Source of the DNA: a virus
Direction: 5' to 3' (one strand)
Length of the DNA stretch: 64,000 nt
Virus record (IMG/VR): IMGVR_UViG_3300034283_001913
Location: 18,604-82,603 of that record
Shown in pieces: positions 12,312 through 56,041 of this stretch (its first letter is position 1; each line of letters starts with the position of its first letter). The position numbers were made by a program, and so were the translations under genes. The notes under the pieces are model-generated. The model saw only the letters and a program-made list of their open reading frames with translations. It made no database searches and was not told where the DNA came from.

Positions 12312-12317
12312 GCATCC

Positions 12318-12970: not shown

Positions 12971-12971
12971 G

Positions 12972-31600: not shown

Positions 31601-31913
31601 TGATTTTATTATGGAAAATACAGGGAAGCTTAAAATAGAAAACCCTATGGCTGGTAATATTACTATAACAAAAGAAACAAACATGTATCGGTTAGATATG
31701 AATCTTATCGAGTACGATGATAATGGTAATAATATTTCACGAGCCGCTGAACCTACCTATCATGACCTTACGTTAGATCTTGGCGATCTTTATACAAGAT
31801 TTAGTCAAAATCTTGATATCAATGCTATGCTTAATAGAACTACTTTGACTAATGCCGCTCAACAGTATAAAGGAGATCCTAATCAGATTTTATATAACAC
31901 CCCAGCTCAGTAA
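28665..31913 (+). CDS. Virion cargo/ejection protein
   Basis: 1082 aa; QPFQPDF...LQTKQSRYD N-terminus, helical; synteny before the giant proteins. Confidence 0.55.
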   Translation: MATYIQGVTDYIPELQPFQPDFNMLANVLQTKQSRYDAAHKQLSSVYGTLLNSPMLRQQNIDARDQFFKSIDQEIQRMSGIDLSLQQNQTAAMDVFKGLYEDKNVVKDMMWTKNYMNELKRADAFKSCVDTKKCGGSWWEGGVKALNYKAQEFKNASTEDALNFADASYVAAQDFTEDAIKLAKDSGFEVKFDEVKGDWIVTTKNGKEMIQPLADFYLSRYGNDGKIVEFYKTRAYLNRMDWVTANLSNYADANEANMAYISNLVEASKRKVTQGKQEASEAADIAKTRSQRIDKTIKEQGYIPSMNWLEGWREDKEEVGSTEQTLQVYDDADNNLKALGINRDNVRFAVDNFDSVMGFNMLRETTYNVAEGYARLNQEVTIKENPYAVQAKAQAFQLQRAREKEGYVEIDPETGQRRYVWGTDMYQKYELKRIEEEEKKRAEAELAKKLTTYTPKDFGGTATTLVDQNKAYKDNVSQRNALLDRKNSSAKQYVLEGIRAIQQAHQVNQNNPKAGASLDALNQVTYNILGGASGKITPYDLSDVTYGTIGKKNKYGINPQALITGDKKAVEDFEKLLDDPAILNQLYANTKTQFDPTNGSGWLNNSWVTEDTRTTLSKYEKDFKLSDQFVEAHTDFSKKQSELAITLAQADLSQKQNTEDEDDWNEMDRSFKVFKEVYDTSNVDGFVADDPATNKTLDEKLKKIATERVNNFKKSNPRGYQEHNAMVLAREARDVSLNAQAVATPFGGLTKAFVKAGEYINPSLQALSQLGTVEEMSYDAVVKEYKQGYAMWRQAYSDKGASWTNPKGLKATDDAAHGYSGVIDSGVSPEYSQSNMDFMDMIQNYNTLRDEAKIYYGNIENTGERYRDGEDNDAGARDILDQVIKDFPLGGRLSKEGLPINEDRVAGGFDIVPIAAGDEKTMAFRIVPSKAWGKQYRSAQGKSDKLIDDDRYADEGIVVYMPKDKMQSDYLRRSVYDEYDFIMENTGKLKIENPMAGNITITKETNMYRLDMNLIEYDDNGNNISRAAEPTYHDLTLDLGDLYTRFSQNLDINAMLNRTTLTNAAQQYKGDPNQILYNTPAQ

Positions 31914-31918: not shown

Positions 31919-34900
31919 ATGGCAGAACCGGTTAATCCTTTAGATGCTCCTACTTCTAACATACAACTTGATGTATCGGCAGGGTTAGTAGATCCTAGAA
32001 GTTTAGATATCACTGATATAAAAGTTCCAGATCCTCCTCGGTCATATCCTGTGGGAGTGATGAGTACAAACATGATACCTACTCAAAAACAGGTAAGTGT
32101 TTCCTCGTCTCAAGCAGGTGCCGAAAGATTAAGAGAACTTGGTAGAACAGCTGGAACTTGGGCTAATAACCCTACGTACTATTCTAAAGTAAAAGCTTAT
32201 AACTCTGATTATGATGGAGCAAACTTTAAGAAGTATGCAGCTTTGCCTAGTGTTTATAAAAAGTATGGCTTTACTCCTTTCAGAGATAATGAATCGCTTT
32301 ATAATAAAGAATCTAGTTGGCTAGAGAGATATAGTCGAAGTTTGACCTCTAGTTTGAATCTTGCTCAGTCTGCATATACAGATATGCTTCCTTGGAATAC
32401 TTGGAGGGATTGGAATGATCCTAATATTACATCGGCTAAAGAAATGGCTCGATGGCACGCTATAGGTCATGACAGCAAAGGAGGGCTAGGATCTTGGATT
32501 AATAATATGACTGTAGACTTTGGTTATACAGGAGGTATTCTTGCCGAGATGGCCTCAGAAGAAATTGTTATTTGGGGGGCGTCTACTCTTTTAGCTCCAG
32601 AGACTGCAGGAGCAAGTTGGGCTGCAGCGGCCACACAAGCTGGTAGAAACATTAAAAAAGCTCTTAATCTTTACGATAAGTTCAAAGATGTACAAAAAGG
32701 TATCACTACCACATATGACTGGCTTAAAAAAGCAGATAAAGCAAATGATTTTTGGAAGTTTGCTAAAACATACGGAGGCAAGGGTATTAGCGGTATAGGA
32801 AAAGCGATTCTTCCAGAAACATTTAAGTATGGAACAGAGCTTGCTAAAAGTCCTAAAGCTTTTGAAAAAGCTCTTAGTTGGGCCGGAGCCTCTAAAACAT
32901 TTGGAGCTTTCTATCGCGATGCTCGAGCTTATACAGCAATAGTATCCGAATCCAAACTAGAAGGAGGAAGTACAGAACTAGATGTAAGAGATAGTCTTAT
33001 AGATGAGTACTATAAGAAAAACAACGGAAAGCTTCCTGGAGAAGAAGATTTAAAAAGAATCTATGAAGAAGCCGGTAATGCCGGTCGACAAGCTTTCTAT
33101 TGGAACCTTCCTGCTCTTTGGATATCTAATAAGATAGTTTTTGATAAAGCTCTCAGAGGTTGGAAACCGATGTCTGCTTTTAGAGAAGAACTTGAAAAAG
33201 GTATTAAAGGTAAACTAGTATACGATGAAGCTTTAAGAAAAGCAGGTAAAGCTGCCTGGAGCGTTGTAGATGATGGATGGAAAGGTACTTGGAAAACTCT
33301 TACTACAGGCGCTACATATCGACCTAAAAATCTTCTCAATAACGCCTTAGGTTCTTTTGTAAACTATAGCAAAGCCAATATTACAGAAGGTCTTCAAGAA
33401 GTATATCAGGACGTGGTACAAAATACCATGACTGATTATTATAAAGATCGTTTCCATAACTTCTATACTACAGGTTCAAGATCTGTATTTGGATCTTTTT
33501 ATGATCATATGAAAAATATTGATCCAGGAAGAGCTGTTGAAACTTTTTCTTCAGGATACTTTATGGGCTCTATGGCCAAGTTTCCTCAGAAGCTAATGTT
33601 CGATATTGTACCAGAACAGTTTCATAAGTGGACTAAACCGGAAGATTATAAACAGTGGAGGGATAGTCAAGAAAAAAACACAAAGAGTATTGTAGATGCT
33701 CTTAACGCTGCTACTGAGAATAACGGTTTCTGGGATGCTATTACTGAAAACACAGTATCTCAGATTACCAATCAGCGAGAAGCTGATATGGCCAATGAGG
33801 CCAATGACAAGCGTTCTTATTACACTATTACAGACGATAGTGTATCTCAACATCTTCATACTCTTATTCGTTTCGGAAAACTAGATCTTATAAGAGATCA
33901 AATTAAGGATATGAAAGGTCTTGATGCTAAAGGTTTACAAGAAGCCTTTGGTCCAATGGAGGGCACTGATCAAGAAGTAAGCAATGAATATCAATCTCGC
34001 TTAGATTCTTTCCTTAAGAAAGCTGATATGGTCGAGAAGATGTTTACTGAAACTGAAGAGAAATACGGTAATCCTTTTGATCCAAAAAGCTATAACCGTA
34101 AGACTGATCCTGAAGGGTATGAAAGAGAATATAACGCTTGGGTAGGATGGGAAGAAGCTAAAAAAGCTGCTGTAAAATCTAGCTACGACTTTTTCAGAAC
34201 AACTGGTCGTATGAAGAGTGTTATGGATGAGCTTATTGCAAATAAGCCAGTTGCTGAAAGTATAGCTTCTGAATACATGATGGCTCTTAATACTAATACT
34301 CTTGATGTAGAAATAGAGTCTCTTAAAGGTAATAAAGCCAAAAATGAAAAAGGTCTTATTGAAGTTTACCGTGAAGGAGATGAAGAATCTCAAAAGAAAG
34401 CGGATGAGCTGCAGGGTAGATTAGATGTTCTTGAAAAATACAGAGACGCTATCGACGAGTATAAAAAAGCCGTTGAGATAGATAAAGCTAATCAAACAGG
34501 AGTTGTTAGCGAAGAACAGAGATCTGTCGAAAAAGGAGCTAAAGTAAAACAAGGTACAAAAGTCAAGAATAAAAAAGGCCGGGAAGCTGTTGTTGCTAAG
34601 ATTAAAAAGGGCAAAGCTTATGATGAAAACGGCGGTCTTATCGGTAAGGTAAGCAGTTTAGAAATACTTGAGGGAGAAAGAGAAGAGGATATACTAACTA
34701 GTGCTACACAGAACCTTTACGACAACTATAGAGAATTTGTCAAATATATTTCTAGAGCTAAAGGTGAAGTAGCAATAGATGCTGGTATTGATGAGTCTTT
34801 TATGAAGCTCAAAGATTACTATGCTTTAGGAGTTGACCGAGAGTCTTATGCAGCAGCTGTTGACATCCTGCACAATCCTAGTAAGTTTACAGAATACGCT

Positions 34901-37534
34901 AGTCGTATTGCTCAACTTGCTGGAGAACTTAAGCGTCAAAATAAAGCTAAGATTGAAGAAAGCTATAAGAAGTTCTTAGCAGGTATGCATAAGAGCCAGC
35001 TTTTCTCAAAGCTTTATGAGATGGGAGTATTTGTAGATGAAAAAGGTATGGAAGCTATCCTTGAAGAAAAGATACCTTCTGTTTTCTACTACATTGCCGG
35101 CGAAAAAGAAATGGTTCCTTTTGAATCTGATACTTATAAAAAGATCCTTGATCTATTTGAAAAGTATGAAGCTGCACAAGGAGTTCGATTTACAGAGAAG
35201 CCTATACCCGAAGAAGAGATGCGGATGGATGCTCTTATGTTTTCTGGACAAACCCGTAATAAAATCAAAGGTGACGTCAGAACATATGAGGATCTTGCCA
35301 AAGAATATGGCTTTAATCTTGACCCTTCTGTAGAAACTAAAGTTAAAACTAGAGATATTTTACAAAAAATAATCGATAGTAAGTATTCTACTTACCGGGA
35401 AAAAGCTCTTGCTAGACGTCTTTTAGGTATTGTATCTAAGGAGAGTGTAATAACCTTTAAGAAGCTTAGCCTAGGCGGATACTTTCAATATAGTGCTGAT
35501 GGTAAAACAGGAACCTTTATAGATCCTAGATATTTTTCTTCAGACTATAGAGGAGATTCAAAAGCTATTGAAACAGTTTTTCTTCATGAGCTTATCCATG
35601 AGATTACCAGCTTTGAACTAGATAAAAACCCTCAGTTCAAAGCGGCTATTAAAAAGCTTATGGATAGAGCTATCAAAGAGTATGAGACTAATCGTCCTTC
35701 TGATGAAATGGTATATGGTTATGCTGTATCAAAACCTTTCTATGGTCTTAAAAATGAACATGAGTTTCTTGCTGAGATGTTTACAAATCCTAGGTTTGCG
35801 GCATGGCTTGATACAATAGAATACGAAACTACAGGCAAAACTGTTTGGAAAGAGTTTTTGAATATGCTTCAGTATATGCTGTCGCAGATTCTTGGAGTAA
35901 CAAAGGATAATACTCTCCTTAAGGAAGCTCTTAATATTGCTACATCCTACATCGAAACTATCCATGGTCAGAGCGTGGCTCAGCCAGAAAGAGTTGGAGA
36001 AAAGATACGTCCTGGTCGTCGCAGACCGTCTACCGGACCTACAGCAGGAGCTACGCTTAATCCTGGATCAAGTATTGAACAATACAGATCGGCGGGTGTA
36101 TTGCCAGCTCTTGTGCAGTCTTATAGAAATTTTGTTAAAGATCGTACAGGGGCTGATAGCCTTACTGCAGAACAGTGGCCGGATCAAAACGTTGCTTCTA
36201 AAACAGATGACGAGGTAGCAAATAGCCCAGAATTTAGACAGTATCTGCAGATGGGCAGCGGAGAAGTACAAAGGATTCTTAATGAATACAATAGAACAAA
36301 AGTTGCTCCTCAACCGACTCCTGCTCCTACAGCAGCAACATTTACTCCGACTACACCTTATGGTACACCAACAGGGGCTCCTCTTACAACAGCTACCCCT
36401 GCTCCTGCTGTCCCTACCGGTATAGTAGAAGTTACTCCTGAAAAAGAAACTGAGATTATCAATGCTGTTACTGAAGAAGATTACATTGCTTCATCAGAAG
36501 GTATTACAGAAGAGGGTATTCAAAAAGCCAGAGGAGCCGAAAAACAAAGAGCTGTTGCGGATGCTAAAACTGCAGCTAAACATGCTCTTGATTTTATCTC
36601 TGGTAAGATAGATGCTAAAAACTATCTCAATAGATTAGGCTATGATATGGCGTCTCTTACTCCGCAAGACATTACAGATCTCTCGGAAAGAGAGTCTGCA
36701 TACTGGCGTAGTAAACTGGGACCAGTTCCTCAAGCTCAGCCGGTTGCAACTCAAGAAGTTGTAGATGGTGCTGAGGCTGCTGCAGTAGAAGATACTACAC
36801 CTGCTGAATACCAGCAGAAGAAACAGCTTGTTTCAGATCTGGGTTACAACTGGAATCAGGTAAACCGGATGACTAAGTCGGAAGCTCAATATCTTATTGA
36901 TAATGATATTTCTGCTGAACAGCTTGCTGAAAGTAAGCGTATGGCGGAGGAATCCGCTAGAAGAGCCGCTGAAGAACAATCTCAGATGTTGTACCAAGCT
37001 ACCATGCAGGAGCTTGAGCAAATGATTGCTGATGCGGAAAGCAAGTCTGAGTTAGACGCTGCGGAAAGCGCCATCTCTATAGCGATTTACGAAGATGAGA
37101 TAAGTGTAGCAGATGTTTCCAGATTGGAAAGCCTTATTGAACAAAGAAAACAACAGCTAGCCCGAGATATCAAGTATGAGGATATTGAAGAAAACACAAG
37201 CTTGATCATGAAAAATGGATCTAGAGTAGTTGTTGTTAAAAAAGAAAATAATACTTTATATCTTCGTCCTTACGGTCAGCCCGGAGGAAGAGTCTTTACA
37301 GTTAAAGCTGACAAAGTCAAAGAAAAAATCTTATATAAAGACCAACCATTTGTGGAACAATTTGACGTAATCCCTCCAGTAGATCCTGAAAGTCAAGCAG
37401 CCGCTGTACAAGTTATTAATGACGCGGTTGAGCTGAATACTACAGATACTATTACCGAGGATCTTGAGGATGCTCGTACAGCTGTTACAGCTGAGATAGA
37501 AGATGATTTTGATAACTCTTTAGGATGCCAATAA
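31919..37534 (+). CDS. Giant virion cargo protein with zincin-like metallopeptidase domain
   Basis: 1871 aa; HELIH (35585-35599) followed by EFLAE; only Cys seen is the penultimate residue. Confidence 0.65.
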   Translation: MAEPVNPLDAPTSNIQLDVSAGLVDPRSLDITDIKVPDPPRSYPVGVMSTNMIPTQKQVSVSSSQAGAERLRELGRTAGTWANNPTYYSKVKAYNSDYDGANFKKYAALPSVYKKYGFTPFRDNESLYNKESSWLERYSRSLTSSLNLAQSAYTDMLPWNTWRDWNDPNITSAKEMARWHAIGHDSKGGLGSWINNMTVDFGYTGGILAEMASEEIVIWGASTLLAPETAGASWAAAATQAGRNIKKALNLYDKFKDVQKGITTTYDWLKKADKANDFWKFAKTYGGKGISGIGKAILPETFKYGTELAKSPKAFEKALSWAGASKTFGAFYRDARAYTAIVSESKLEGGSTELDVRDSLIDEYYKKNNGKLPGEEDLKRIYEEAGNAGRQAFYWNLPALWISNKIVFDKALRGWKPMSAFREELEKGIKGKLVYDEALRKAGKAAWSVVDDGWKGTWKTLTTGATYRPKNLLNNALGSFVNYSKANITEGLQEVYQDVVQNTMTDYYKDRFHNFYTTGSRSVFGSFYDHMKNIDPGRAVETFSSGYFMGSMAKFPQKLMFDIVPEQFHKWTKPEDYKQWRDSQEKNTKSIVDALNAATENNGFWDAITENTVSQITNQREADMANEANDKRSYYTITDDSVSQHLHTLIRFGKLDLIRDQIKDMKGLDAKGLQEAFGPMEGTDQEVSNEYQSRLDSFLKKADMVEKMFTETEEKYGNPFDPKSYNRKTDPEGYEREYNAWVGWEEAKKAAVKSSYDFFRTTGRMKSVMDELIANKPVAESIASEYMMALNTNTLDVEIESLKGNKAKNEKGLIEVYREGDEESQKKADELQGRLDVLEKYRDAIDEYKKAVEIDKANQTGVVSEEQRSVEKGAKVKQGTKVKNKKGREAVVAKIKKGKAYDENGGLIGKVSSLEILEGEREEDILTSATQNLYDNYREFVKYISRAKGEVAIDAGIDESFMKLKDYYALGVDRESYAAAVDILHNPSKFTEYASRIAQLAGELKRQNKAKIEESYKKFLAGMHKSQLFSKLYEMGVFVDEKGMEAILEEKIPSVFYYIAGEKEMVPFESDTYKKILDLFEKYEAAQGVRFTEKPIPEEEMRMDALMFSGQTRNKIKGDVRTYEDLAKEYGFNLDPSVETKVKTRDILQKIIDSKYSTYREKALARRLLGIVSKESVITFKKLSLGGYFQYSADGKTGTFIDPRYFSSDYRGDSKAIETVFLHELIHEITSFELDKNPQFKAAIKKLMDRAIKEYETNRPSDEMVYGYAVSKPFYGLKNEHEFLAEMFTNPRFAAWLDTIEYETTGKTVWKEFLNMLQYMLSQILGVTKDNTLLKEALNIATSYIETIHGQSVAQPERVGEKIRPGRRRPSTGPTAGATLNPGSSIEQYRSAGVLPALVQSYRNFVKDRTGADSLTAEQWPDQNVASKTDDEVANSPEFRQYLQMGSGEVQRILNEYNRTKVAPQPTPAPTAATFTPTTPYGTPTGAPLTTATPAPAVPTGIVEVTPEKETEIINAVTEEDYIASSEGITEEGIQKARGAEKQRAVADAKTAAKHALDFISGKIDAKNYLNRLGYDMASLTPQDITDLSERESAYWRSKLGPVPQAQPVATQEVVDGAEAAAVEDTTPAEYQQKKQLVSDLGYNWNQVNRMTKSEAQYLIDNDISAEQLAESKRMAEESARRAAEEQSQMLYQATMQELEQMIADAESKSELDAAESAISIAIYEDEISVADVSRLESLIEQRKQQLARDIKYEDIEENTSLIMKNGSRVVVVKKENNTLYLRPYGQPGGRVFTVKADKVKEKILYKDQPFVEQFDVIPPVDPESQAAAVQVINDAVELNTTDTITEDLEDARTAVTAEIEDDFDNSLGCQ

Positions 37535-37535
37535 G

Positions 37536-40500
37536 ATGATTTGCGTATTAACAACAGAACAACAGCGAAAGTTCCGAAAAAAGGTTGCGAAGAACTTACT
37601 AGACATAACAGAGCAAAATACTCCTTTCAGTGTAAAGGAGTATGCTACTTCTGTCTATAACCGTGTCTTAGAGAAGACGCAGAACTCAGATCTTGCTCTT
37701 ACATATGCGGCTCTGGCTCCTCTTTATATTGATCAGATAGCCAGTGCTGACAGAAATGTCAAGATGGCTTTGATGGATAAAAACGTGAGCTTTGATGAAA
37801 TAGCTCGGATGGTAAGAGATTTTGGAAATGAGGAAACAGGTCTGGAAGCTGTTAAAACTACTTTAGGTATAGCAGCTAATATCGTCGGTGATGTTCGTAA
37901 TATGAACGAGAGTTTGCAACAACAGACTCAAGAGCCTCCGGTTCAAGCCCCTCCCGTAACACCATCTGTTTCTGCTAATCAACCGGTACCTGATCCTGAT
38001 TTAAGGACATCTTCTTCTAAGAAACAGTTTAATGCGGCTAAGCCTACTATTATGGCTACAAGAACGCAAGAAGCTATTTCTGATAAAAAGGGTGATCCAA
38101 ACTACAATGTGCCTAATCCTGTTCTTGTTCCTTTCTTTAAAACAATTAGAGATGTTTTAACTAAACTATTTTCTCCGGTTGTAGATAGAGATGCGAATAA
38201 GATAGAGATTGTTCCAGGTATGCCTGGCGTAAAGTTACGCTTGATGCCTATTAATCAGATTGACAGATCTAAAGTCTTAAGTAGAGATCTTCAACCTGCA
38301 GAGGCAAACAAGCCTAGTAACTATGATTCCAATGAGCCTGTACTTGTCCTAACAGATAAATACGGTCAGCCTATTTTTTTTAATGATAACGGTGAGTATG
38401 ATCCAAACGGAACACCTCGTTACTATTATTTCAGACAACTCTATTCTGGAAACTTTGATGCGCAAGGTAATCTGCAACCGTATAGAGCAGTTACACCAGG
38501 TACAGCAGATGATTACAGTCGCATAGATGCTTTAGCTAGACAGAAAAGAATTTCAAAAGAGGAAGCTCGTGCACAGATTATAAAAGATCTTGAGCTTGTT
38601 CAGAAACTTCGTAAAGCTCTTAAGGATAATCCTGATGAGATGCTTCTTATGGATATTACGGGAGGAAGCATGGGTTATGCTGACTGGGACTTTAATACTT
38701 TTACTCGTCTTTCTTCTATTGATTTTGCAGGTGAAAATATCAGATTTGAATCTGCTAAAACAGAAGGAGGCGTGGTTGATTTAGGAAGAGTTGTATTTAC
38801 TACAAAACAGTTACCTGGATTAAAAATTGAGCTAGAGAGACCTGTAATAAAAGACTCTCCCAATATGGTAGATCTTTTGGCAAACCTTATGACTCAAGAT
38901 CTTGTAGAGAAGAATAGTGTTGGAGATACTGTTAAAGTAAGTGTTCAAAAAAGAATCGATTATATCAATCAGTATTTCATGACCAGACAAGAAGGTCTGG
39001 ATGTTTACTCTAATGAAGATGGTTCTTTTACTGTGAAGTTGATGGGTAATGTAATATACCAATCTCTTCCTACTCTTTATAAAAATCAACAAGGAGACTT
39101 TGTCAATAGAGAAGTTGCGCCTACAGCTCAAGAGCTCGCTGAAAACGAGCTCATGGGTCAAACAGCTAGGACTGAAATAAAAAATTATCTTTCTAATCTT
39201 CAGGTTCAAGCTAAACCTTTGGATTCTAATAGTGTTACAGATTTTCAAAAGCGTAAAGCTATTTCTGGTACAAACTTTTATGATCCGCAAACTAGATCTA
39301 AGTTTACAAAACCTGGCGATATTTTTTATAATACAGCTACAGGTCTTTATTACAGTGTACAGTATCCTAAAGGTAACGTCAAAGCCGATTTATTAAATAG
39401 AAATTTCTCTGATCTTTCTATTGCTAGAGAAGGCGATCGTTTCATGGTTAATCAAACAGAAAAACCATATAACGATTACATAAAAGAAAACTTTACCATA
39501 CACTATCCTTTAAACGCTCAGCGCCAGCTCTTCCGTCTTAATGCCTATCTATCATTTGAGCCTACTAGTTCTACGATGGAAAAGATTAATCCGAGAGTTG
39601 AACCTCGTGTAGAAACACCAGTTGCTACATCTACTACTACGGATGCTACTGTGCCTCCTGTACAGACAAGTGCTCTACGAGATGCGATGAATAATCCAGA
39701 ACTTGATAAGGGCATAGATGTAAAGAAAGATGAGTTAAAAGCTACTGAAGCTCAAATCGAGGCTGCCCGTAAGTGGTACGAAAATCATCCTCTTAGTAAA
39801 TACTTTCCTTTTGAGGCCATGTTTACCATGGTTAACTCAAAAAATCGTCGTGCGGTAGCTACATGGTCTATGCAAGGTATTACTTTGTATAGAGGATCTG
39901 ATTACTCAGATCTCTACCACGAAGCATGGCATGGATTTACTCAAGCTTTTCTTTCTCCTGCTCAGAAAAAAGCTTTGTATGCAGAAGCTGGTAAAATGTC
40001 TGGATCCTTTGTAGATTACAAAGGAAACACTGTTAAATTCTCTGATGCTGATGAAAAGCAGCTTGAAGAGTATCTAGCTGAAGATTTTCGTAAGTGGATG
40101 CTCAAAGGTGGAAAAGCAGATATTGCGCAGCCTGTTAAGAAGACTATCTTCCAGAAGATACTTGATTTCTTAAAAGCTTTGTTCGGCGACCTTACTTATG
40201 ACGAAGTTGTAGCAGACTCTAAAGCTCTTCGTACTATTCATACTTTATATGAAAAACTCCGTGTAGGAAATCTTAGCGAATACACATTCTCTGAAGACAA
40301 CGCTACTTTCGGAGTACTAGAAAAAGGTATGATGGCTATCAAAGAAGATGCTTCTGTAAAATCTTTGAGCTATGAAGACTCTAGATATCTTGTAGAGTTG
40401 ACTGATTCTTTGATGTCAGAGTTTGTAGATGAATTTTCTAAGAACAAAAGATCATCAGGAAATATATCATATAAATGGACCAGCACTCTTCTTAAGAAAA

Positions 40501-43500
40501 AAGCAGGTCTCAAACTTGCTTATCAGCATGTTCTAGAAAGATCTATCAATACTAGAAATGCTCTTAAGGCAAAGTTGGATGCTGCTACAGAAGACGTTGT
40601 AAAAAACAGTCTTACCAAACAAGTTCAGCGCCTAGATTGGTTCATTGACAACTTTGGTAATGTTGATAATCTTCTTGAGAACCGTCCTAAAAAAGGAGAG
40701 GATACTCGCAGCGTTATTGCTTATCATATGCTTAAGTCTCAGGTTCTTGAACCTGAAACAAAAGAAGGTTTCTTTGATGAGGATGTTACTAAAGAAGAAG
40801 ATCTTTGGTCTAAAGGAAGAGAAGGATATGATAAGGGAGGTAACGAGCTTTCTCACCAAGAGATGGCGAGTACCGAGATTCTATTCTTAATGCGTAGTCT
40901 ACACAAAGTAGACAAGAACGGTCAGCCGGTATATATGCCTGGCACAGAATATGAGTATGAGGAAAACGGTGTAAAGAAAAAAGCAGGTGTTCCTCAGCTT
41001 GAATCGTTTGACCGGGTATGGAATGCTACAGCAAAGCTTTTGCAAAACACTCTAAACATTGAGACTATGTTTGCTAAGTTAGCTGAATACAGAAAGAACA
41101 ACAAAGATTTCCCTATGGCTCAGCTTATGGATAAGATGGGCCCTGTGGATACAACGGGTACAACAGAATGGCATCTTTGGACAAACTTCTGGCAAACTTT
41201 TAATAAATCTCGTGTACCTCTTGTACAAGCTGGTGTAGAGATTGTTAATGTAAATAAAGAAGGTAAAGCTCTCAATTTTGAAAACTGGAGATACGAGATT
41301 AAGATTGGACAATCTTCTGGTAATATAAAACGGGTTGCTACAGATTGGGAACATTACTTTGCTTCAGCTAAAACTAGGTTTATAAAACCGGATAAAAATG
41401 GTGTAAACTATCTGGACATGGCTGAGGTAATTAAAGCTTACCCTAAAGCGCCTACAGGAGCTAAAGAACAGTTAGCTTTTTTAAGAGATATCGGATTCTT
41501 ACTAGAGGAAGATAATCTTGACATTGAAAATGCTCTTCTTGATGAACAGTTTGATGCAAAACCTTTTTGGTATGTAATTAGTAAGCTTAATAAGAGAAGA
41601 GATAATTCGGGTAAACCCGCTGTAAAGATTACTAGACTTTCTCATCTTAAAGAAAAGTATCCTTCTTTTCAAGGTAAAGATGATAACGGCAGAGATGTTA
41701 CATATCCTGAACTAGAAGGTGAAGGCCAAAACTGGAATAAGATTCTTGAAGCTGAAGCTAAATACTCAGATCTCAGAGGAAACTTCATGGTTACAAATGC
41801 TGAGGGTAATACTCAGTTTGAACATACCTTGAATAACTCTTTGACTATTATGGTCAATGCTGTTAACGATGTATCTACTTATCAAGAGCTTATCAACTTA
41901 CCGTGGATGAGACATCTTGATGTAAAGAGAAACCCGTGGGCTAAGTCTTCTGTATGGCTTAATTCCATATTTGATATGGAGGATCTTGATGGAGAAGGAA
42001 ATATTATAGGAAAGAAAAGATTAGATCCTAAAGGACAACCTGTAAAGTTTGTATTAGAAAATCTTAGCGGTGTTGCTGTAGAAAAAAATGGTGAGTTTGA
42101 AAATGAAAAAGGTATTTCTTCTGCCAAGGCCGATGTAGTTACAAAGCTTTTGATGGACCTACACTTAAGTATATTAAGAGGTTCTCCGGAGCTTATGAGA
42201 CATGCTGATAAGGGAACATCTTTTTCTGTATTTGTAAGTCGTATATACAATCCTAAAGTTTCTACAAAAGCTGGACAACTTGCTACAGCGTATGTTCCTA
42301 CTATTCAGTTGCTCAGAGATCTGAAAAATGATAACAATCAGTCTCTTGGTTATAGTGAAGGAGATGAGAATATGTTTAGCAACTATATGCTTGGTTATAT
42401 CAATGCAGAGCATGCTCGTATAAGACAGCTCCGTAAAATGGCCAAGGACGGTGCAACAGATTTTGACTTTAAGTATCTGACCAACGGTAGAGGATTTGTA
42501 GCTTTTTCTGATGTATTAACTATAGATACTAAGAAAGCTTTGCTTAAACTAGATCAAGACCTAGATACGTATCTTAAGCAGAATACAGAAGACGCAAGAG
42601 CTCTTCGTAATGCGATGAAGACTGATGTGATTCAGTACTTTAACAAAGAGACGGCTCGTGTAATGGATATGTTTAAGAATGCTAGAGGTATCGATGGTAA
42701 GCTTTTGGTCGGTAAAAGCGTCTTGACAAAACTTAGTGGTCAAATCCGAAATGAAAATCTTGGGTCTGATAATCTTAAAACAGGAGCTCAAGAAAATGCC
42801 CTGGTTAAATCTTTCGTAATAAACAGTTGGATTCACAATATGGAATCTGTATCTGTTATCTATGGTGATCCTGCTCTTTATAACATGAAGAAAGAGGAGT
42901 TCCATAAACGTAACGCAGGTGTAGGTTCTACCGGTACAATTTATCGTACAGATTCTTTGGCTATGGACTATGTAAATGGAGTTCTTGGCCGAGGATATCG
43001 TAAAAAGAGATTCCCAGAAAAACAAGAAGACTATCCTTTTGATGGTCGTATGAACACAGCTGTTGTAAGGGATAATGAAATCCGTTCTACATATTTTAGT
43101 CAGTATGCTGATGCTCTTATTAAAGATGAGATGGCTCGTACTAATGTTAGTCGTCAGGAAGCAGAAGCTAAAGTACTTGGAGCGGAAAGAGATAAAGATG
43201 GTAATATTACCAAACTTGGTACTGTATCAGATCCTATTGAAGGAGGCTTGATATATGCGTACCAGAAGATGAATGAAGGAGATGCTCAAGGTTGGATAAC
43301 TTTTGACTCTTATAGAATACTTCTTAACCTAGAAGGTAAGTGGAGTGATCAGCAAGAGGAGATGTACCAGAAGATTATAAATGGTCAAGATATCGATCAT
43401 AGAACACTTACTCAATTCTTCCCTCCTCAAAAGCTGCAGTATTTTGGACCGCTCGATACTGAAGGATTGCCTATTACGGCGTTCCACAAGTTTTCTTTAT

Positions 43501-48071: not shown

Positions 48072-48076
48072 TCAAG

Positions 48077-51000
48077 ATGCAAGCATGCCCTATTGGTCCA
48101 GAATGGGATCTCCTCGTAAAAGAGGTAGGTCCCTTTCAGGCATACAGAGACTACCTACAAACTGGTGGCGAAATACGTACTCCTTCCGAAGTAAAAAGCA
48201 AGCTTCAGTCAGAAGGTGTACTTACTTCTATCTATCCGGCTCATCAGTATCAGCTAGAAAGAACTCAGAATAGTATTCCTCCGGCAGATCTAAATGCTTT
48301 AAAAAAGCTGGCAGAAACACTTACTGCTAAGTTTCCGGGCTATGCTTATAAGATAGAGAATCTTCCTAATGAGAACTTTAAGGGAGTATTGGTACCTTCT
48401 ACAGACCCTAGAGCTGTAGGAGGCAAGCCTACAATTATAATCAATGGAGCAAAGGCTAGCAAAGACACTCCTTTACATGAGTTTGGCCACGTGCTTCTCA
48501 ATATGGTTAAGGCCGAAAATACCAGACTCTACTTCGGCCTTCTTAATAAGATGTTTGATTCTTATACAGAAGAGGTAAGGCCTGGAGAAAAAGTTACTAA
48601 GTATCGAGTTAAGGCTAAGTACAAAGAAGAGTTTGCTATTATAGAAGCTCTTTATCCTATTCCTGAAGGACTTAATGATAAGCAAAGGGAAGCTGCAGAA
48701 GTGTACCAGATAGAAGAGTTGATGGTAGAAATGATGGGTAGGTTTGCTGCAGAGTTTTATGACGATAATGGCGAGTTTAAAGATGACCACGTAAGTAGGG
48801 ATAAAACCCTTCAAAGCTTATCTAAAGCTTTAAGAAAGATTTGGGAAACAATTAAAAATATGTTGTTGGGAGGTGTTCAAAATATTGACGCTATTAATAT
48901 TTCTCCGGATGCTTCTCTTGATGACTTAGCTATTATTCTTGCTAATCCTAATATTGCAGTAAAATCAGGAGAGTTAAGTCCTGCTAAACCTGAAATAGAA
49001 AAAATCAATAATAAGATTTTAGAGCTTACATCTTTATATAACCAGATGGATTCCAACGATGTAAAGCTTGTGCAGCTAGGAGAAAATTTCTTTTATCTTA
49101 CAACAGCTCAAGAAGAAGCTTTAAAGAAAGTACAAGAGGCTCTTCTTTGGTATAGAAACTATGTAGACGCAGGAATAGCGCCTAACATGACTACTCCTAA
49201 GATTGAAACAGGTTTAAAGTATGTTTATCAAAAGATTAAAGAGAAAAAAACTCTCTTAGGTAGACCTCTTACGTTTGAAGAATATGAACAGATTTTAGAT
49301 GAGCCTCGTTTAAGATATGTAAAGATTATTTTACAAACTTTTTTCAATAACCATGCAAGATTTAGACTATATAACAACTTTGCCACTAGTACTGAAGGCA
49401 GCATTAGATCTGCTATTGCTAGCTTTGTAAGTGATCTTAATGAAAGGATGTTAGGTAACAGAAGAGGTTATGATCCTAATACTTACGGCGTGAGTCCAGA
49501 TGCACAACTTGGTAATATATTAAAAGATCCTGGTCATTTTTTAAGACCTCTCTTTGTAGCTCAGATGGCTCCTGTTGGAGGACAACTTTTTTCGTATACT
49601 ACACGCAAGACTCCTCAGTATAGAACTAGTAATTATGATAATCTTTCAGATGCTATATTTGATGAAGTTGCTAAGCTTGAAGAAAATAAAAGAAATACTA
49701 AGGCTTATAGAGAGGCAACCTTTACATTAAAATATATAGATCCGGCTACAGGCCAAGAAACTACAGAAGATATAGATGTAGATGGGACTCTTCAGCCAAA
49801 CGGACTAATTAAGACAAATTTTAGATCTGATAAATTTTCTTTTGGTGATGCGGAATGGATAGTTCCAGCAACTGAAGATAATGTAAAAGCTAGATCTATT
49901 GTTTCATATAACTATAATCGTTATGGTGTAGTAGAGGTTAGTAATGGAAAAGCTTTGATTTTACCAGGAGATGGTATTACAGGAACCAGATATAAAGACT
50001 GGTATAAAGCTATTAAAAATAAAGATTATGCCAAAGCTTCCGAGATAGCAAATAATCACGGGGTTCTTAGAGACATTCAAGATCTTAAAGCAGTGATCGA
50101 TATGCCCAACCGGGTTCTGGAAGTAATGGGGCGCGTAATAGATACGGTTTCTTCTCTTTTTGCAGATGCTGACTACGCAGGTATTGAGTTTACTCCTGCT
50201 AGCGGATCATCATCTATAAGAGATTCTGGAGAAGAAAGAGAAAGGATCTATAACCTAATGTTTGCTAGAACCTTTGGTAGATACTCTACTGTTAAAGTAG
50301 GAGATAGAGGACACTCAATGATAGTTCCTACCTGGTATCGATCAAGCCTTAATGTCAATCAGCCTGTTTTTCAGCTAGACCGTACACCAGATTCTATACA
50401 AGAGTTTGCAGAAAGTACAGACACGTCTTTAGCCACAGTTGCTATAGAACCTATGAGGGCGTCTATATCTGTTACTCCGGAAACAACAAGCAACACTAAA
50501 GGGATATCCGGCCTAAAAGCTCTATTACGTAACCTGGCCAACAAGCTTTATGCAAAAGCCCTGGCTAATCAGTTTATGGTAGGCCAGAACGCTATCAAGT
50601 ATGAGTTTATCGATGCGGCTGAAGCAGCAGAGATTACGAAGAACAAGACAAATCCTTGGAACGGAGAGAAAGCTTTCTTCATAGGAGACACAGTATACTT
50701 TGTAGGAGACAGAGTAACCATGGGAGATATGTTCCATGAGTTCTCTCACCCTTTTGTAAGAAGTCTGTATTACCAGAACCGGGAGATGTTTAATAAGATC
50801 TACCGGGATTTACTGAAGACACCTGAGGGATTGGCCTTGTACAGGCAGATGAAGATTGATTATCCGGAACTTAGCGAGACAGACCCGCTGTTTGCTGAGG
50901 AGATGATAGTAAGAACACTTACTGCCGCGTCCGGAATGGAACAGCGTGGTGAAGCTAAATCTGATAGCTTTGCTTCTGTCCTTAAAGATTTGATGTTTGC

Positions 51001-54000
51001 TCTACGTCAAATGCTACGTCAGTTCTTTGGTAAGAGTATTAATGCCTCTAAGCTTACTCCTAATACTAATATTGTAGATCTTGTTAATATGCTTAAGGAA
51101 GGTCAGGTCTTCGAGATAGCTGATGAAGCCCTCGAGGATATCGACACCGTAGCTTATATCCGAGATACTAACCAGTATGTTACTGATCTACTGCGTATCA
51201 GTAAGCCTGAACTTATTGGTCTTACCGTTAGAGCTCACGACATCGCGTTAAAGCAAATCGATGCTGTTTCTCGTAACCGTAATTATGAAGAGATTGCTTC
51301 CCTGCTTGCTGATGAGTTTAAGCGTGGCGACTTACAAGAGATGAAGCGCAATCTTTCGAAGTTTGCTAAACCTCTTGAAGATAAACTACGCCAGAAGCGA
51401 GACGAGGTTGAATATAATAAAGCGCATGCTACCGCGATGGTTAACACCTTCTTCCGGTTGCAGAACATGACGGATAAGATTCGTGGTCACATGTTAGAAC
51501 TATCTAAGGATAAGGACAACATTGACAACATGCACAAAGCGGTCTATTACAACTACTTACTAGACTACTGGTCCAAATATATTGCAGAGGTTATCAAGAC
51601 TATGAATGAGGCTGGTGTACCTACTAGTAATCCTTTGTATTCTCTTGTTACTAGTATCGATGGTAATATCAAAGGGACCCAGAAATATACTAAGGATATC
51701 TACGAAAGAGGTAGCCGGGATGTTATCTATAGCCAGCTCATGCCTATGGCTGAGAACATCGATAAGCGCTATAAAGGTATCATCCAACGTCTTAAGGATA
51801 GAAACGCTTCACCAAAGCTCATTGATTCTTGGATGGTTGAATACACTGGTCTTACCCAAGTAGAAAACGATGAGAGAGATACTCTTCAAAGTTTAAAGGA
51901 TCAGGGTAAGAGCACGTTTGAACAGAACAAGCGCCTAGCGGCTCTTGATAAAAAATCTTTAGATGGCGCTCAAATCACTGAGCAAAAAATTGAGAAAGCT
52001 CTTAAGGGTGAGCTTAAGGACGGTAACGTCTTTAATGCTTTCTTTGAAGGTTACATGTATAGTGCCGATCCTGTTGTAGGAGGCTTTGCTCTTTATGTCA
52101 AGAATCAGATGTCTGATGTAATGAACAAGGCTATGGGCAAGTTTAATGACTATGCCCGAGACATGGCCCCTTTACTTAAAGCTGCAGGTTATAGCGGAGC
52201 TAATGTGAACGCTCTTATAGAAAGAGTAGCTCGTGTAGAAAAGATAGGTCGTATCAATGAAAAAGGTGAGTGGGAAGAAAGAGATGTCTGGACACTGAAG
52301 AGTGCTCATAAAAACTGGCGGATTGATCTAGATCGCGCACGTTATAAAGTAGACGAAGCTCATAAAGAGTACTCCCAGCATAATACCGATGAGACTTACA
52401 AAGCTCTTATTCAAGCTATCGCTGATCGTAAAAAACTTCTTAGAGATTACTTTCACCAAGAATACCAAGCTAAGGTCTATGCTCGAGATTATATGCTTGA
52501 GCAAGGATATCGCGTTGTAACTATTAATGGTAAGCAAGTTGATGTTGGCTTAGAAGCGGCATATCTTAAAGACCGTCTGTTTGAACTGATGGGTGAGATT
52601 ACCAATTCTAATACTTCTCAATTAGACGAGCTTCAGACTTCAGATAAGATGGATGATCTCTGGAGACAATATCACCAGCTCTTTTCTTTAGTAGACGCTA
52701 ACGGTAAGATGAAGACTGGTCTGGATAAAGAGATCGCTGTTCTCTTAAAAGAATATCGCGAAGCTTCAAAAGATCCAGATACCGGCGAGTCTTATTTTGA
52801 ATGGAAGCCTCGCACAGGTTTGTTTGAAAACTCCATGGCTCAGTTTGAGCAAGAACTTGCTCAAAGATTTGCTCCAGGTAGCCCAGCATATGAAAGAGAG
52901 TTTTCAAGATGGGTGCGCAAGAATAGCCGCGTCGCTATAAAGAAAGAATACTTCGATGAGATCCGCAGTATCATGGCGGATATAGAATCGATTATGAGCA
53001 AGCTTCCTGATTCTACTAAGAAGAAGTATGCAATCTCAGAGACTTACTCTAAGATTATGGATCTTGTTGCAGGTAACCGTGATGATGACGGTCAGCCTAA
53101 TGGTATGAACTTTACCCAAAAAGGTATAGAGTTTATCAAACAGCAGCAAGAGCTTCTCAATGAGATGATGAAAGGGTTTGCTAATCTGTCCGGATTAAAC
53201 GAAGATGAAGCTTCTCGTTACAGTTACTACTGGGACCAGATCAATAACAAGGTACCTCTTAGTGCTGCAGAACAATCCGACTTTAATAATCTTAGAAACA
53301 AGTCTGATAATACAGGTCTTAGTAAACTTCAAAAAGAAAAACTCTTTGCTTCATTTGCTAAGCTTGATGGCTTACGTAAAAAAGAGGCCACCACTTATTA
53401 CTGCCTGATCATGAATAATCAGCTGAGCAAACTTGATACAGCTCAGATGATGAGAATCATGAATACTAATAACATCACATCTGAATCTGCAGATCTAATC
53501 TTGCAGGGTAACGTGATTAATTCTCTTCTTGGTCAGAGCGCAGAGTTCGATGCTTGGTTCTATGCTAACCATATCCAGAAAGAAGTATATGATCAGGAGC
53601 TTGGTGCAAAGAAACCTGTATGGCAAAGAATATATGTGTGGAATGTAACCCGTCCGGTTAATGAAGATTTTTATGAGAAGACTGTAGTAACACGCGCAGA
53701 TGGCAGATCTTATACTATAAAAGGTTTGCCGGCAATGAAATACTATAGCCGTGTTGTAAAGCCTCAGTATCGTACTGAAAGAATCATAGGCAATACTGTA
53801 GATAACCAGGGGAACTTCCTACCTCGACTGGACATACCAAATAGCCCTTATATAGATCAGGACTATTTGAATATGCAGAGTACAGATCCTAAGCACTATG
53901 CTATCCTTGAAAAGATGAAGGAGCATCATCTCCGGAATCAAGAAGGATTGTCATATAGAAGCCGACTCTATCTTGATATTCCTAGATATAGAAAAAATGC

Positions 54001-56041
54001 TCTAGAGGTTCTCCGTACTAAGAAGCTATCCGCTATAGCAGGCGATGTTGGTGAAGATAACTTCCCTATTCTTCAGCTTATGATAGAACGTTTTAAAAAC
54101 TTCTTCCGTAAAGCTAAAGATGAAAAAGGTGAGGGTTACGCTTGGGAAGACGATGCTATGCTTGTTCGTGCAGACATGTTTGATAATGAGGTAGCTAGTG
54201 TACCTATCACAGGTCTTTACGATTTGGATATCAACGACGTGTCTCCGGATGTAAACCAATCTCTGATGCGTTACATGTTCTCAGCAGAGCGTCAGAAGAA
54301 GCTTATTGAAATTAATCCTGTAGCTAGAGCTTTACAATCTACTCTTAACAACCCGGATAACTTTGCTAAAGAGATGAACAAGATCAACAAGTTCAACTTT
54401 ATGCATAGAGGGATCATGACTTACTTAAATAAGAAGGGTAAATATGTAAGGCAGTATGCGGTTAATAATTTTATAGAAAGAGAGTTTGAGGGTATTACAG
54501 ATGTGGGTTGGACAGCGGGTATGCCTTTCTTACAGAATGTTACAAAGATGATGCTTAGCAGAAGCTCTCTTGCTTTCTTCGCCCTTAATTTTCCTAGCGC
54601 TATAAAAAACGTTTTAGGTGCTAAATACCAAGGCATGATTATGTCTGCAGGAGGTATAGATATAGATCCTATTTCTATGGCTAAAGGAGAAGGCTGGGCA
54701 TTTAATACAATGTCTCAGGTTTCCTTTAATACTTATGCTCGCGGACCTAAGCCTTTGAATATGCAAATAGCAGATTCATTTGATGCTATTCGCGGTAGAG
54801 CAGAAACTAAGCTCCCTGAATCTTTATCTCGTACTTTCTTGCATGATGTAGCTAACTTCAGCTATCTGACCAATTTTAGAAAGTGGACAGAAGATGAAGC
54901 TGCACTGCAGCTCTTTGCCGGCATGATGTATAAAAAGAAGATTACACGTGATGGTAAAGAGATTAATTATATGGAAGCTTGGGAACAGGTGGACGGTCAA
55001 CTTAAACTTAAAGATGGTATAGATGTTCGTTATAGTAACATGCCTACTAACTATACACTAGAGGATGGCGATACACTAGAATCTCTTGCCAAGAAGTTTA
55101 ATATGACTAAAGAGGATCTCCAACAATCTATCAAAGGCCAGTCTTTTAAAACCGGAAAAGAAATTAAGATTGACAATCTGCTTTATAAGGCTTTCCGTAA
55201 TAGGTTCCATACAGTACAGATGAACCTTAACGGTGCCTATGATAAGTTTGATCAACCGGAAGCAGCGCGCTATCTGGCTTATAGAATGATTGCCTTTCTT
55301 AAGCGTTACTTTACCCCGATGTTTATTAATCGTTGGGCCTTTAGTGGAAACATGTTTGGGCCTAAGCGAGGTAGATACAATCCCGGTTTAGGCGATATGC
55401 AAGAGGGTTACTATGTTACAACTCTTAAGATGCTCTCTCGTACTTTTAAATACGGTACAGAGAACTGGGCTCACATGACTCCGGAAGAGCATGCTGCTTG
55501 GAAGAAAACCGTAGTAGAGATAATTGGTCTATTGGCTATTCTTAGTGTCCTAGTTCCAATGTTAGGATTTGATCCTACAGATCCAGATAGATATGAAAAG
55601 ATGCGTCAGCGTAGCGGTAACTTGCCTTTCTTTGGTCTTTCTCCTGAAGATCCCGAGCATCCTTGGAATGCTGGAGGATGGCTTACCAACCATGCTATTC
55701 TTATGGCCCTTCAGGTTAGAGCAGAAAACGAAGCGTTTGTACCATACCCTGGATTTGGTTTAGATAACTATTATGAGACTTTCACTGATGCAAGCTCTTT
55801 AAGTTTCGGCGCTACGTTGAAGACTTATAAAGAGATGATTGAGCTTGCTTATATGGAAGCTACCGGTAATCAGTATGCTAGATATCAGAAAGACTCCGGC
55901 CCATACGAGTGGCAAAAAGAAGGAGGCTCTAAGCTTTGGACAAGTTTCTGGAAGTCTGTCGGATTTACCGGTGGTACATTAGACCCTATAACAGCTACCA
56001 AAAACAATCCAACCTTGGCAAGTTCAAGTAGTTCACAATAA
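48077..56041 (+). CDS. Giant virion cargo protein with two zincin domains, a LysM-like insert and a C-terminal hydrophobic helix
   Basis: 2654 aa; HEFGH (48476), HEFSH (50735), YTLEDGDTLESLAKKFNMT (55052), IIGLLAILSVLVPMLG. Confidence 0.65.
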   Translation: MQACPIGPEWDLLVKEVGPFQAYRDYLQTGGEIRTPSEVKSKLQSEGVLTSIYPAHQYQLERTQNSIPPADLNALKKLAETLTAKFPGYAYKIENLPNENFKGVLVPSTDPRAVGGKPTIIINGAKASKDTPLHEFGHVLLNMVKAENTRLYFGLLNKMFDSYTEEVRPGEKVTKYRVKAKYKEEFAIIEALYPIPEGLNDKQREAAEVYQIEELMVEMMGRFAAEFYDDNGEFKDDHVSRDKTLQSLSKALRKIWETIKNMLLGGVQNIDAINISPDASLDDLAIILANPNIAVKSGELSPAKPEIEKINNKILELTSLYNQMDSNDVKLVQLGENFFYLTTAQEEALKKVQEALLWYRNYVDAGIAPNMTTPKIETGLKYVYQKIKEKKTLLGRPLTFEEYEQILDEPRLRYVKIILQTFFNNHARFRLYNNFATSTEGSIRSAIASFVSDLNERMLGNRRGYDPNTYGVSPDAQLGNILKDPGHFLRPLFVAQMAPVGGQLFSYTTRKTPQYRTSNYDNLSDAIFDEVAKLEENKRNTKAYREATFTLKYIDPATGQETTEDIDVDGTLQPNGLIKTNFRSDKFSFGDAEWIVPATEDNVKARSIVSYNYNRYGVVEVSNGKALILPGDGITGTRYKDWYKAIKNKDYAKASEIANNHGVLRDIQDLKAVIDMPNRVLEVMGRVIDTVSSLFADADYAGIEFTPASGSSSIRDSGEERERIYNLMFARTFGRYSTVKVGDRGHSMIVPTWYRSSLNVNQPVFQLDRTPDSIQEFAESTDTSLATVAIEPMRASISVTPETTSNTKGISGLKALLRNLANKLYAKALANQFMVGQNAIKYEFIDAAEAAEITKNKTNPWNGEKAFFIGDTVYFVGDRVTMGDMFHEFSHPFVRSLYYQNREMFNKIYRDLLKTPEGLALYRQMKIDYPELSETDPLFAEEMIVRTLTAASGMEQRGEAKSDSFASVLKDLMFALRQMLRQFFGKSINASKLTPNTNIVDLVNMLKEGQVFEIADEALEDIDTVAYIRDTNQYVTDLLRISKPELIGLTVRAHDIALKQIDAVSRNRNYEEIASLLADEFKRGDLQEMKRNLSKFAKPLEDKLRQKRDEVEYNKAHATAMVNTFFRLQNMTDKIRGHMLELSKDKDNIDNMHKAVYYNYLLDYWSKYIAEVIKTMNEAGVPTSNPLYSLVTSIDGNIKGTQKYTKDIYERGSRDVIYSQLMPMAENIDKRYKGIIQRLKDRNASPKLIDSWMVEYTGLTQVENDERDTLQSLKDQGKSTFEQNKRLAALDKKSLDGAQITEQKIEKALKGELKDGNVFNAFFEGYMYSADPVVGGFALYVKNQMSDVMNKAMGKFNDYARDMAPLLKAAGYSGANVNALIERVARVEKIGRINEKGEWEERDVWTLKSAHKNWRIDLDRARYKVDEAHKEYSQHNTDETYKALIQAIADRKKLLRDYFHQEYQAKVYARDYMLEQGYRVVTINGKQVDVGLEAAYLKDRLFELMGEITNSNTSQLDELQTSDKMDDLWRQYHQLFSLVDANGKMKTGLDKEIAVLLKEYREASKDPDTGESYFEWKPRTGLFENSMAQFEQELAQRFAPGSPAYEREFSRWVRKNSRVAIKKEYFDEIRSIMADIESIMSKLPDSTKKKYAISETYSKIMDLVAGNRDDDGQPNGMNFTQKGIEFIKQQQELLNEMMKGFANLSGLNEDEASRYSYYWDQINNKVPLSAAEQSDFNNLRNKSDNTGLSKLQKEKLFASFAKLDGLRKKEATTYYCLIMNNQLSKLDTAQMMRIMNTNNITSESADLILQGNVINSLLGQSAEFDAWFYANHIQKEVYDQELGAKKPVWQRIYVWNVTRPVNEDFYEKTVVTRADGRSYTIKGLPAMKYYSRVVKPQYRTERIIGNTVDNQGNFLPRLDIPNSPYIDQDYLNMQSTDPKHYAILEKMKEHHLRNQEGLSYRSRLYLDIPRYRKNALEVLRTKKLSAIAGDVGEDNFPILQLMIERFKNFFRKAKDEKGEGYAWEDDAMLVRADMFDNEVASVPITGLYDLDINDVSPDVNQSLMRYMFSAERQKKLIEINPVARALQSTLNNPDNFAKEMNKINKFNFMHRGIMTYLNKKGKYVRQYAVNNFIEREFEGITDVGWTAGMPFLQNVTKMMLSRSSLAFFALNFPSAIKNVLGAKYQGMIMSAGGIDIDPISMAKGEGWAFNTMSQVSFNTYARGPKPLNMQIADSFDAIRGRAETKLPESLSRTFLHDVANFSYLTNFRKWTEDEAALQLFAGMMYKKKITRDGKEINYMEAWEQVDGQLKLKDGIDVRYSNMPTNYTLEDGDTLESLAKKFNMTKEDLQQSIKGQSFKTGKEIKIDNLLYKAFRNRFHTVQMNLNGAYDKFDQPEAARYLAYRMIAFLKRYFTPMFINRWAFSGNMFGPKRGRYNPGLGDMQEGYYVTTLKMLSRTFKYGTENWAHMTPEEHAAWKKTVVEIIGLLAILSVLVPMLGFDPTDPDRYEKMRQRSGNLPFFGLSPEDPEHPWNAGGWLTNHAILMALQVRAENEAFVPYPGFGLDNYYETFTDASSLSFGATLKTYKEMIELAYMEATGNQYARYQKDSGPYEWQKEGGSKLWTSFWKSVGFTGGTLDPITATKNNPTLASSSSSQ

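Follow-up and report, generated by a model that had tools for sequence, protein, structure and literature searches.

In the 64,000-nucleotide (nt) stretch of DNA analysed here (hereafter the window; positions 18,604 to 82,603 of the IMG/VR record IMGVR_UViG_3300034283_001913), three long consecutive open reading frames (ORF1, ORF2 and ORF3; Table 1) encode proteins of a lake crAss-like phage that are nearly free of cysteine (Cys), and the few cysteines present face each other across the two gene junctions, one close to the C-terminus (C-end) of the upstream protein and one close to the N-terminus (N-end) of the downstream protein. These facing terminal cysteines are pairs between consecutive proteins and depend on the gene splits: across fused and extra-split forms of the module, there are as many Cys pairs as splits. 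We infer, with a probability of roughly 0.6, that the paired cysteines of crAss-like phages form disulfides stitching the proteins into one chain, which would be packaged and ejected in order and released by reduction.

The three translated proteins contain five cysteines in 8,036 residues (0.05–0.08% of each protein), four of which sit two to four residues from either junction (ORF1/ORF2 and ORF2/ORF3), and the free outer ends, namely the N-end of ORF1 and the C-end of ORF3, have none. An earlier note, made from the letters of this DNA, had claimed this very distribution; the exact count agrees with it, and all five nucleotide positions it gave for the cysteines are correct on codon check. 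Under random placement of five cysteines over 8,036 residues, the probability that at least four fall within the 16 facing-end positions is 7.8e-11, a post hoc figure in which the 16 positions are those up to four residues from each of the four facing ends. That the pattern is not due to chance follows from the homologues, which keep the rule (see below). The fifth cysteine, Cys1776 of ORF3, was found again only in homologue P0150 (84% identity) and probably stands outside the terminal-Cys system. By comparison, the Cys share is ~3–7% in most capsid/tail proteins of the window and 0.6–3% in the opposite-strand genes; the capsid/tail proteins encoded at 3265–14686 (+ strand) are thus very Cys-rich, in sharp contrast to the cargo.

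Amongst 119 homologues of ORF2 (32–57% identity), 92 have exactly two cysteines, one at each end. A Cys occurs within 10 residues of the N-end in 112 and within 10 residues of the C-end in 118, the single protein lacking the latter being C-truncated. Ten homologues have no Cys in the first six residues: five are N-truncated and three carry it at residue 7 or 9 (for the remaining two, see below). In an alignment of 48 sequences, Cys3 shows no variation, and at least 90% retain Cys3509. All 28 homologues of ORF1 contain exactly one Cys, located within 10 residues of the C-end in 27 and within four in 26 (10 and 13 residues in the other two); an N-end Cys occurs in none of the 28. The ORF3 homologues have a Cys at residue 3–7 in 68 out of 73 instances, in 51 of them as the sole Cys, while the five Cys-free ones begin differently; a C-end Cys is found in one of the 73. 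Cys4 is invariant in a 58-sequence alignment. The terminal cysteines are therefore conserved in the orthologues, a check that the earlier note had proposed.

Residues ~1756–2404 of ORF2 match gp66 of Cellulophaga phage phi14:2, the catalytic RNA polymerase (RNAP) subunit (tblastn, 2e-23; blastp, 3e-27); ORF2 also matches a 2412-amino-acid (aa) protein of Kehishuvirus (blastp, 2e-17), and its DFDID motif (residues 2388–2392) is invariant in the 48 aligned homologues. ORF3 weakly matches phi14:2 gp65 (blastp, 2e-5) and the 1349-aa Gp49-like protein of Kehishuvirus (8e-7), and in the alignment of 58 sequences, E888 of its HExxH motif is invariant, with H887 and H891 kept in at least 90%. Because of the gp66 match, the DFDID motif, the HExxH motif of ORF3 and its gp65/Gp49-like matches, we assign the module to the phi14:2/crAss001 type: judged by sequence, ORF1-ORF2-ORF3 are the counterparts of phi14:2 gp67-gp66-gp65 and crAss001 Gp47-Gp50-Gp49. 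ORF1 was assigned as the gp67/Gp47 counterpart from position only; no significant match of ORF1 to gp67 or Gp47 was found. Searches of PHROGs and Pfam returned no family for ORF1 or ORF2 and only sub-threshold matches for ORF3, in which a weak LysM match lies under the Pfam cut-off. The junction region gave no blastn match against GenBank phages, and no relative turned up when IMG/VR was scanned with a single protein, the ORF1 C-end.

An HExxH motif is present in each of the three chain proteins (ORF1 at residue 1223, positions 35585–35599; ORF2 at 795; ORF3 at 887), which, by sequence, may mark several metalloprotease-like domains within one module. Around its HExxH motif, ORF1 shows a weak alignment to the zincin region of phi14:2 gp65 (1e-5). 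Gp47, Gp49 and Gp50 of crAss001 are reported as detected in virions by mass spectrometry (PMC10172136), and the proteins of the phi14:2 module are stated to be virion-packaged (preprint 10.1101/2020.03.07.982082). By homology, ORF1–3 are probably packed in the virion of this lake phage as well.

A profile scan of IMG/VR yielded 79 loci, in which ORFs of at least 400 aa were called from the first ATG and a junction end was scored as bearing a Cys if one lay within 10 residues of it. For 180 junctions of consecutive ORFs, a Cys was present on both facing ends in 132 cases, on neither in 48 and on only one in none (Fisher, 7e-45, relatedness ignored); the pairing of facing cysteines that had been suggested for the window thus holds across these loci. 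The 48 Cys-free junctions are all located at or before the chain start, and 43 match the Cys junctions in their tight spacing, with gaps of −14 to +22 nt. In every one of the 40 complete chains (37 made of three proteins and three of two), both the first N-end and the last C-end are Cys-free. Distinct chain proteins, which add up to 517,883 residues, contain 257 terminal cysteines as against 25 internal ones, the former lying 1 to 10 residues from the end. The median gap at 122 distinct Cys junctions is 2 nt, with gaps of 524–1837 nt at nine of them, and TGT prevails as the Cys codon both upstream (114/122) and downstream (107/122). One polymerase-containing protein of 6381 aa (L036, 7386–26531) contains no cysteines other than residue 5 and the final residue.

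Chains of two, three and four proteins carry two, four and six terminal cysteines. Since the number of cysteines scales in this way with the number of junctions, one-to-one links between a C-end and the following N-end are favoured over one shared four-Cys site, and for this reason we rejected one metal or Fe-S site that would unite the three proteins through four cysteines. Lipobox or CaaX-type modification of the terminal cysteines was likewise rejected, because a signal peptide is lacking and the cysteines lie at varying distances (1 to 10 residues) from the end.

The same layout is found in cultured phages. In phi14:2, the sole Cys of g067 (1797 aa) is its last residue, g066 has cysteines at 3 and at 2179 of 2180, and g065 has only Cys 3. 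In crAss001, the sole Cys of Gp47 is 3 from the end, Gp50 has cysteines at 5, 1334 and 2404 of 2412, and in Gp49, Cys 5 is the only one. The pattern of these two phages recurs in DAC15 and Kehishuvirus tikkala. The first gene of the module lies on the opposite strand in crAss001, DAC15, Kehishuvirus tikkala and IAS virus, and its protein retains the C-terminal Cys; the rule is therefore independent of a shared gene junction. It also means that ejection in gene order, as envisaged in the earlier note, cannot be the rule if taken literally.

Where genes of the module are fused, the corresponding pair is gone. Fusions of the first two proteins (cr118_1, cr50_1 and cr4_1 of the Suoliviridae, Fpv1, L060, L083–L085 and L087) lack both an N-end Cys and a pair where the genes are fused, and they keep the pair with the last protein; for instance, gp33 of Flavobacterium phage Fpv1 contains one Cys in 4401 residues, at 4400. 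In cr108_1, a further fusion of this type, the last-junction pair is likewise the only one retained. Conversely, fusions of the last two proteins (p-crAssphage gp44, crAss002 gp33 and cr271_1 gp48, identified with blastp) have a pair only at the first junction. The loss of the terminal cysteines on fusion, the other check suggested beforehand, is hence seen in both fusion types. Fused junctions were placed by blastp with longer proteins, and profiles of the 200-aa termini gave no match to the fused proteins.

Additional splits are accompanied by additional pairs. The extra split in L044 (3977 / 655), which corresponds to a single 4116-aa protein in L070 (58% identity; Cys only at 5 and 4116), carries an extra pair, as does that in L071 (1172+ / 1326), which matches unsplit relatives with one Cys, e.g., the 2597-aa protein of L063. 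L069 includes a 506-aa middle protein with cysteines at 5 and 506. In an RNAP-core tree (FastTree, 87 rows), the architecture changes at least eight times, a number that is approximate owing to long branches.

The window proteins are homologous to those of phi14:2 and crAss001 and share the Cys pattern of both cultured phages; they are larger, and the first split in the window lies ~1000 residues further upstream than that of crAss001, relative to an HExxH anchor. HEAFH at 2157 of crAss001 Gp47 (184 aa before its C-end) aligns with HEAWH at 795 of ORF2, and the spacing from HExxH to DxDxD is ~1350–1790 aa throughout, though the first split site moves. Because this anchor belongs to the second protein in the window and to the first in crAss001, with stable spacing, the cysteines track protein ends and not homologous positions.

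In the mechanism that we propose, the lone C-end Cys of each protein would be disulfide-bonded, inside the particle, to the lone Cys at residue 3–6 of the next. The separate proteins would thereby become joined end to end as one chain totalling 8,036 residues and 913 kDa (the summed mass of ORF1–3) with the topology of the fused forms, and the rest of the chain would be kept Cys-free so that no wrong bonds arise. Such a chain would fix the proteins 1:1:1 and in order for packaging and tail passage, and thiol reduction in the host cytoplasm would open the links. In the fused forms (cr118_1, cr50_1, cr4_1, Fpv1, p-crAssphage gp44 of the Intestiviridae), the same domains occur in the same order in one polypeptide, with a peptide bond in place of the proposed disulfide and without the Cys pair at the fused site. 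A similar principle operates in AB toxins (diphtheria toxin, clostridial neurotoxins), where an interchain disulfide keeps two parts joined as they pass a narrow channel, until reduction in the target cytoplasm opens it; these proteins are unrelated and have eukaryotic targets, and the likeness is one of mechanism only.

A disulfide of this kind is known from another phage. In cyanophage A4 (Anabaena phage A-4L), cryo-electron microscopy is reported to show a disulfide between Cys1715 of gp27 and Cys5 of gp26, two ejection proteins, in the virion pre-ejectosome (PNAS 2025, PMC12002296). In the GenBank record of A4, these are the sole cysteines of gp27 (1717 aa) and gp26 (1114 aa), while gp29, a further ejection protein next to them, has none and gp28 has two. 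As in gp27, Cys1870 of 1871 in ORF1 and Cys3509 of 3511 in ORF2 lie a few residues from the C-end, and Cys3 of ORF2 and Cys4 of ORF3 resemble Cys5 of gp26, so the window pairs may work like gp27-gp26, by analogy and outside that protein family. The differences are considerable: A4L_26, 27 and 28 have no detectable similarity to ORF1–3 (best blastp E 0.31), A4 has a single link between two proteins, as compared to the two to three or more links proposed for crAss-like phages, and the A4 pair does not include an RNA polymerase and comes from a different family (Saffermanviridae). The available text of the A4 paper describes neither a rule across genomes nor a dependence on gene splits (PMC12002296). 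Disulfides between virion proteins are also reported from the tail barrel, the hubs and gp57 of crAss001 virions (PMC10172136).

We found no description of a crAss disulfide chain in the literature, and the word "cysteine" occurs 0 times in the main text of PMC10172136, the 2020 phi14:2 preprint, PMC10136315 and PMC7886860; the N4 paper (PMC13434306) does not mention these cysteines either. The remark in the earlier note that no description of this was known stands, accordingly, for the crAss chain but not for the bond as such, the gp27-gp26 disulfide being in print (PMC12002296), though from outside Crassvirales and involving neither a chain nor an RNA polymerase. What the present counts establish is the conserved pairing rule with its split dependence in Crassvirales; that such a pair is a disulfide in A4 comes from the A4 report (PMC12002296).

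Low Cys content in itself is not distinctive. Coliphage N4 gp50 is described as a single-chain virion RNA polymerase of 3500 aa, of an unrelated polymerase type, that is ejected via the narrow tail like beads on a string (PMC13434306). N4 gp50, gp51 and gp52 are Cys-free, a single-chain polymerase needing no links; T7 gp15 and gp16 are Cys-free too, and T7 gp14 (L096, 1729–2319) has its sole Cys at residue 2. A lone C-end/N-end Cys pair was found neither in N4 gp50-52 (L090) nor in T7 gp13-16. As Cys-poor ejection proteins are common, occurring in these unrelated podophages, it is the terminal pairs that are the special feature.

Several observations speak against the disulfide-stitched chain. 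A disulfide between these proteins is suggested by sequence and by the A4 analogy; none is on record for a crAss-like phage. Assembly of the virions happens in the reducing environment of the cytoplasm, and the habitat of gut crassviruses is oxygen-free. Recombinant gp66 is reportedly active alone, so the link would not be needed for catalysis. No thioredoxin match was found in the 82.6-kb record of the phage (CheckV completeness 69%). The A4 precedent can serve as an analogy only, since A4 has no sequence similarity to ORF1–3, and in the crAss001 reconstruction the cargo is not resolved (PMC10172136). Some genomes in the junction counts are related to one another, so that these counts are not independent. 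Two ORF2 homologues (P0025 and P0056) start ~21–22 residues after the window protein and have no N-end Cys. The terminal cysteines are also loosely placed, at 9 residues from the C-end in Gp50 and 50 in cr273_1 gp35, in addition to the two ORF1 homologues with 10 and 13. Finally, there are exceptions to the rule: p-crAssphage gp47 (L008, 2551–5124) and crAss002 gp30 (L092, 2456–4129), which are smaller proteins of the cargo region, have a lone C-end Cys 2 or 8 residues from the end, and the protein that follows has no N-end Cys; they may form homodimers via this Cys. Two further results count neither way. An Erv-type oxidase was matched neither in the phage record nor in the control genomes, and a complex prediction that paired 212 aa of the ORF2 C-end with 150 aa of the ORF3 N-end, run with no alignments, gave a score of 0.19 (mark 0.34).

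The disulfides could be real and serve packaging only, i.e., co-packaging, stoichiometry or cargo stability in the head, with neither single-thread ejection nor a reduction signal. The sequence says nothing on ejection, and the A4 bond is described as locking a folded "mortise-and-tenon" pre-ejectosome around the portal rather than an unfolded thread (PMC12002296). We nevertheless consider this unlikely: the links run strictly from C-end to N-end and copy the order of the fused proteins, neither of which a plain stabilising bond needs, and published models require a partly unfolded cargo to get through narrow constrictions (PMC10172136; PMC13434306). A metal ion (Zn, Cu or Fe) bridging the facing thiols would result in the same chain topology with other chemistry and another release trigger. 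A two-thiolate metal bridge cannot be separated from a disulfide by sequence, and many C-ends of the ORF2 type have a His or an acidic residue before the Cys (-HC- endings). The two ends share no further conserved ligand, the Cys may lie anywhere from 1 to 10 residues from the end, the numbers of terminal cysteines for two, three and four proteins make a single four-Cys site unlikely, and the like signature in A4 was modelled as a disulfide (PMC12002296), all of which renders a metal bridge improbable.

Each terminal Cys might, instead, act alone, by bonding to portal, capsid or tail, by homodimerisation or by acylation, the co-occurrence at junctions reflecting nothing but shared ancestry. 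The unpaired terminal cysteines of p-crAssphage gp47 and crAss002 gp30 would fit this explanation, as would the disulfides formed by tail and capsid proteins of crAss001 (PMC10172136). That none of the 180 junctions is discordant, that both cysteines are lost jointly on fusion and gained jointly at new splits over at least eight architecture changes, and that the outer ends are Cys-free in 40/40 complete chains make it very improbable in our view. The chance that the Cys codons are by-products of a nucleotide signal for translational coupling or re-initiation appears to be close to nil. Most Cys junctions are indeed tight, with TGT dominant, but equally tight junctions exist amongst the Cys-free ones (43 out of 48), pairs persist over the long gaps of 524–1837 nt, the distance of the Cys codon from stop or start varies, and the pairs with genes on opposite strands (crAss001, Kehishuvirus, DAC15) contradict such a signal.

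The disulfide-stitched chain also has a wider version, which we consider less likely than not. The RNAP module would be a "split polyprotein" in Crassvirales and some relatives, each break being mended by a disulfide between C-end and N-end. One thread of ~0.6–1 MDa would be injected, and reduction in the host cytoplasm would cut it into enzymes, the redox state acting as a timer for early transcription and as the reason for the Cys-free cargo. Such a covalent thread would be the counterpart of the single-chain polymerase of N4.

Crassviruses are the most abundant phages of the human gut. How a near-megadalton cargo that includes an RNA polymerase is stored and delivered through a narrow tail is presented as an open question in the crAss001 and N4 papers (PMC10172136, PMC13434306). 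The sequence rule predicts which ends are joined, and this is testable in the cultured phages phi14:2, crAss001 and DAC15. If the stitched chain is real, it would explain the tolerance of the module to fusion and splitting at many sites, and also the extreme lack of cysteine in the cargo. In addition, the rule provides a practical mark for start codons and for the borders of very divergent genes. For instance, the annotated start of crAss002 gp33 (L092, 13151–25888) is probably 32 codons too early, because residues 33–35, M-S-C, agree with the N-ends of p-crAssphage gp44 and cr271_1 gp48.

Table 1. Genes, cysteine codons and motifs of the three chain proteins (positions in the window).
Feature	Position	Strand	Remarks
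ORF1, first chain protein	31919..37534	+	1871 aa, 210 kDa; sole Cys 1870; HExxH at 1223
Cys1870 codon (TGC) of ORF1	37526..37528	+	penultimate residue, ...LGCQ
ORF2, virion-type two-barrel RNA polymerase (by homology)	37536..48071	+	3511 aa, 399 kDa; Cys only 3 and 3509
Cys3 codon (TGC) of ORF2	37542..37544	+	
HEAWH (HExxH zincin-like motif), ORF2 residues 795-799	39918..39932	+	anchor for split-site movement between lineages
DFDID, catalytic DxDxD of RNA polymerase (D2388, D2390, D2392)	44697..44711	+	invariant in alignment
Cys3509 codon (TGT) of ORF2	48060..48062	+	third residue from end, ...NCYR
ORF3, last chain protein	48077..56041	+	2654 aa, 304 kDa; Cys 4 and non-conserved Cys 1776; HExxH at 887
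Cys4 codon (TGC) of ORF3	48086..48088	+	
HEFSH (HExxH) of ORF3, residues 887-891	50735..50749	+	conserved in 58-sequence alignment
Internal Cys1776 of ORF3	53402..53404	+	non-conserved

Two apparent irregularities in related phages were resolved. The polymerase gene of cr108_1 seemed to be split without cysteines; the two annotated coding sequences are in fact one gene interrupted by a group I intron (RF00028, 80 bits; L003, 21790–22108). A permuted gene order in Intestiviridae was rejected, since blastp shows the polymerase fused to the gp65-like protein instead. The loosest case amongst the cysteine placements is cr273_1 gp35 (L093, 3248–20632), in which a low-complexity acidic tail comes after the last Cys, itself 50 residues before the C-end; the N-end of the next protein reads M-F-C. 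Immediately upstream of the chain, the window encodes a cargo protein of 1082 aa (28665–31913, + strand) with cysteines only at 128 and 134. The same Cys pair is present in its counterparts in L012, L022, L045, L048 and L073, and this conserved CxxxxxC is perhaps an internal bond or a metal site.

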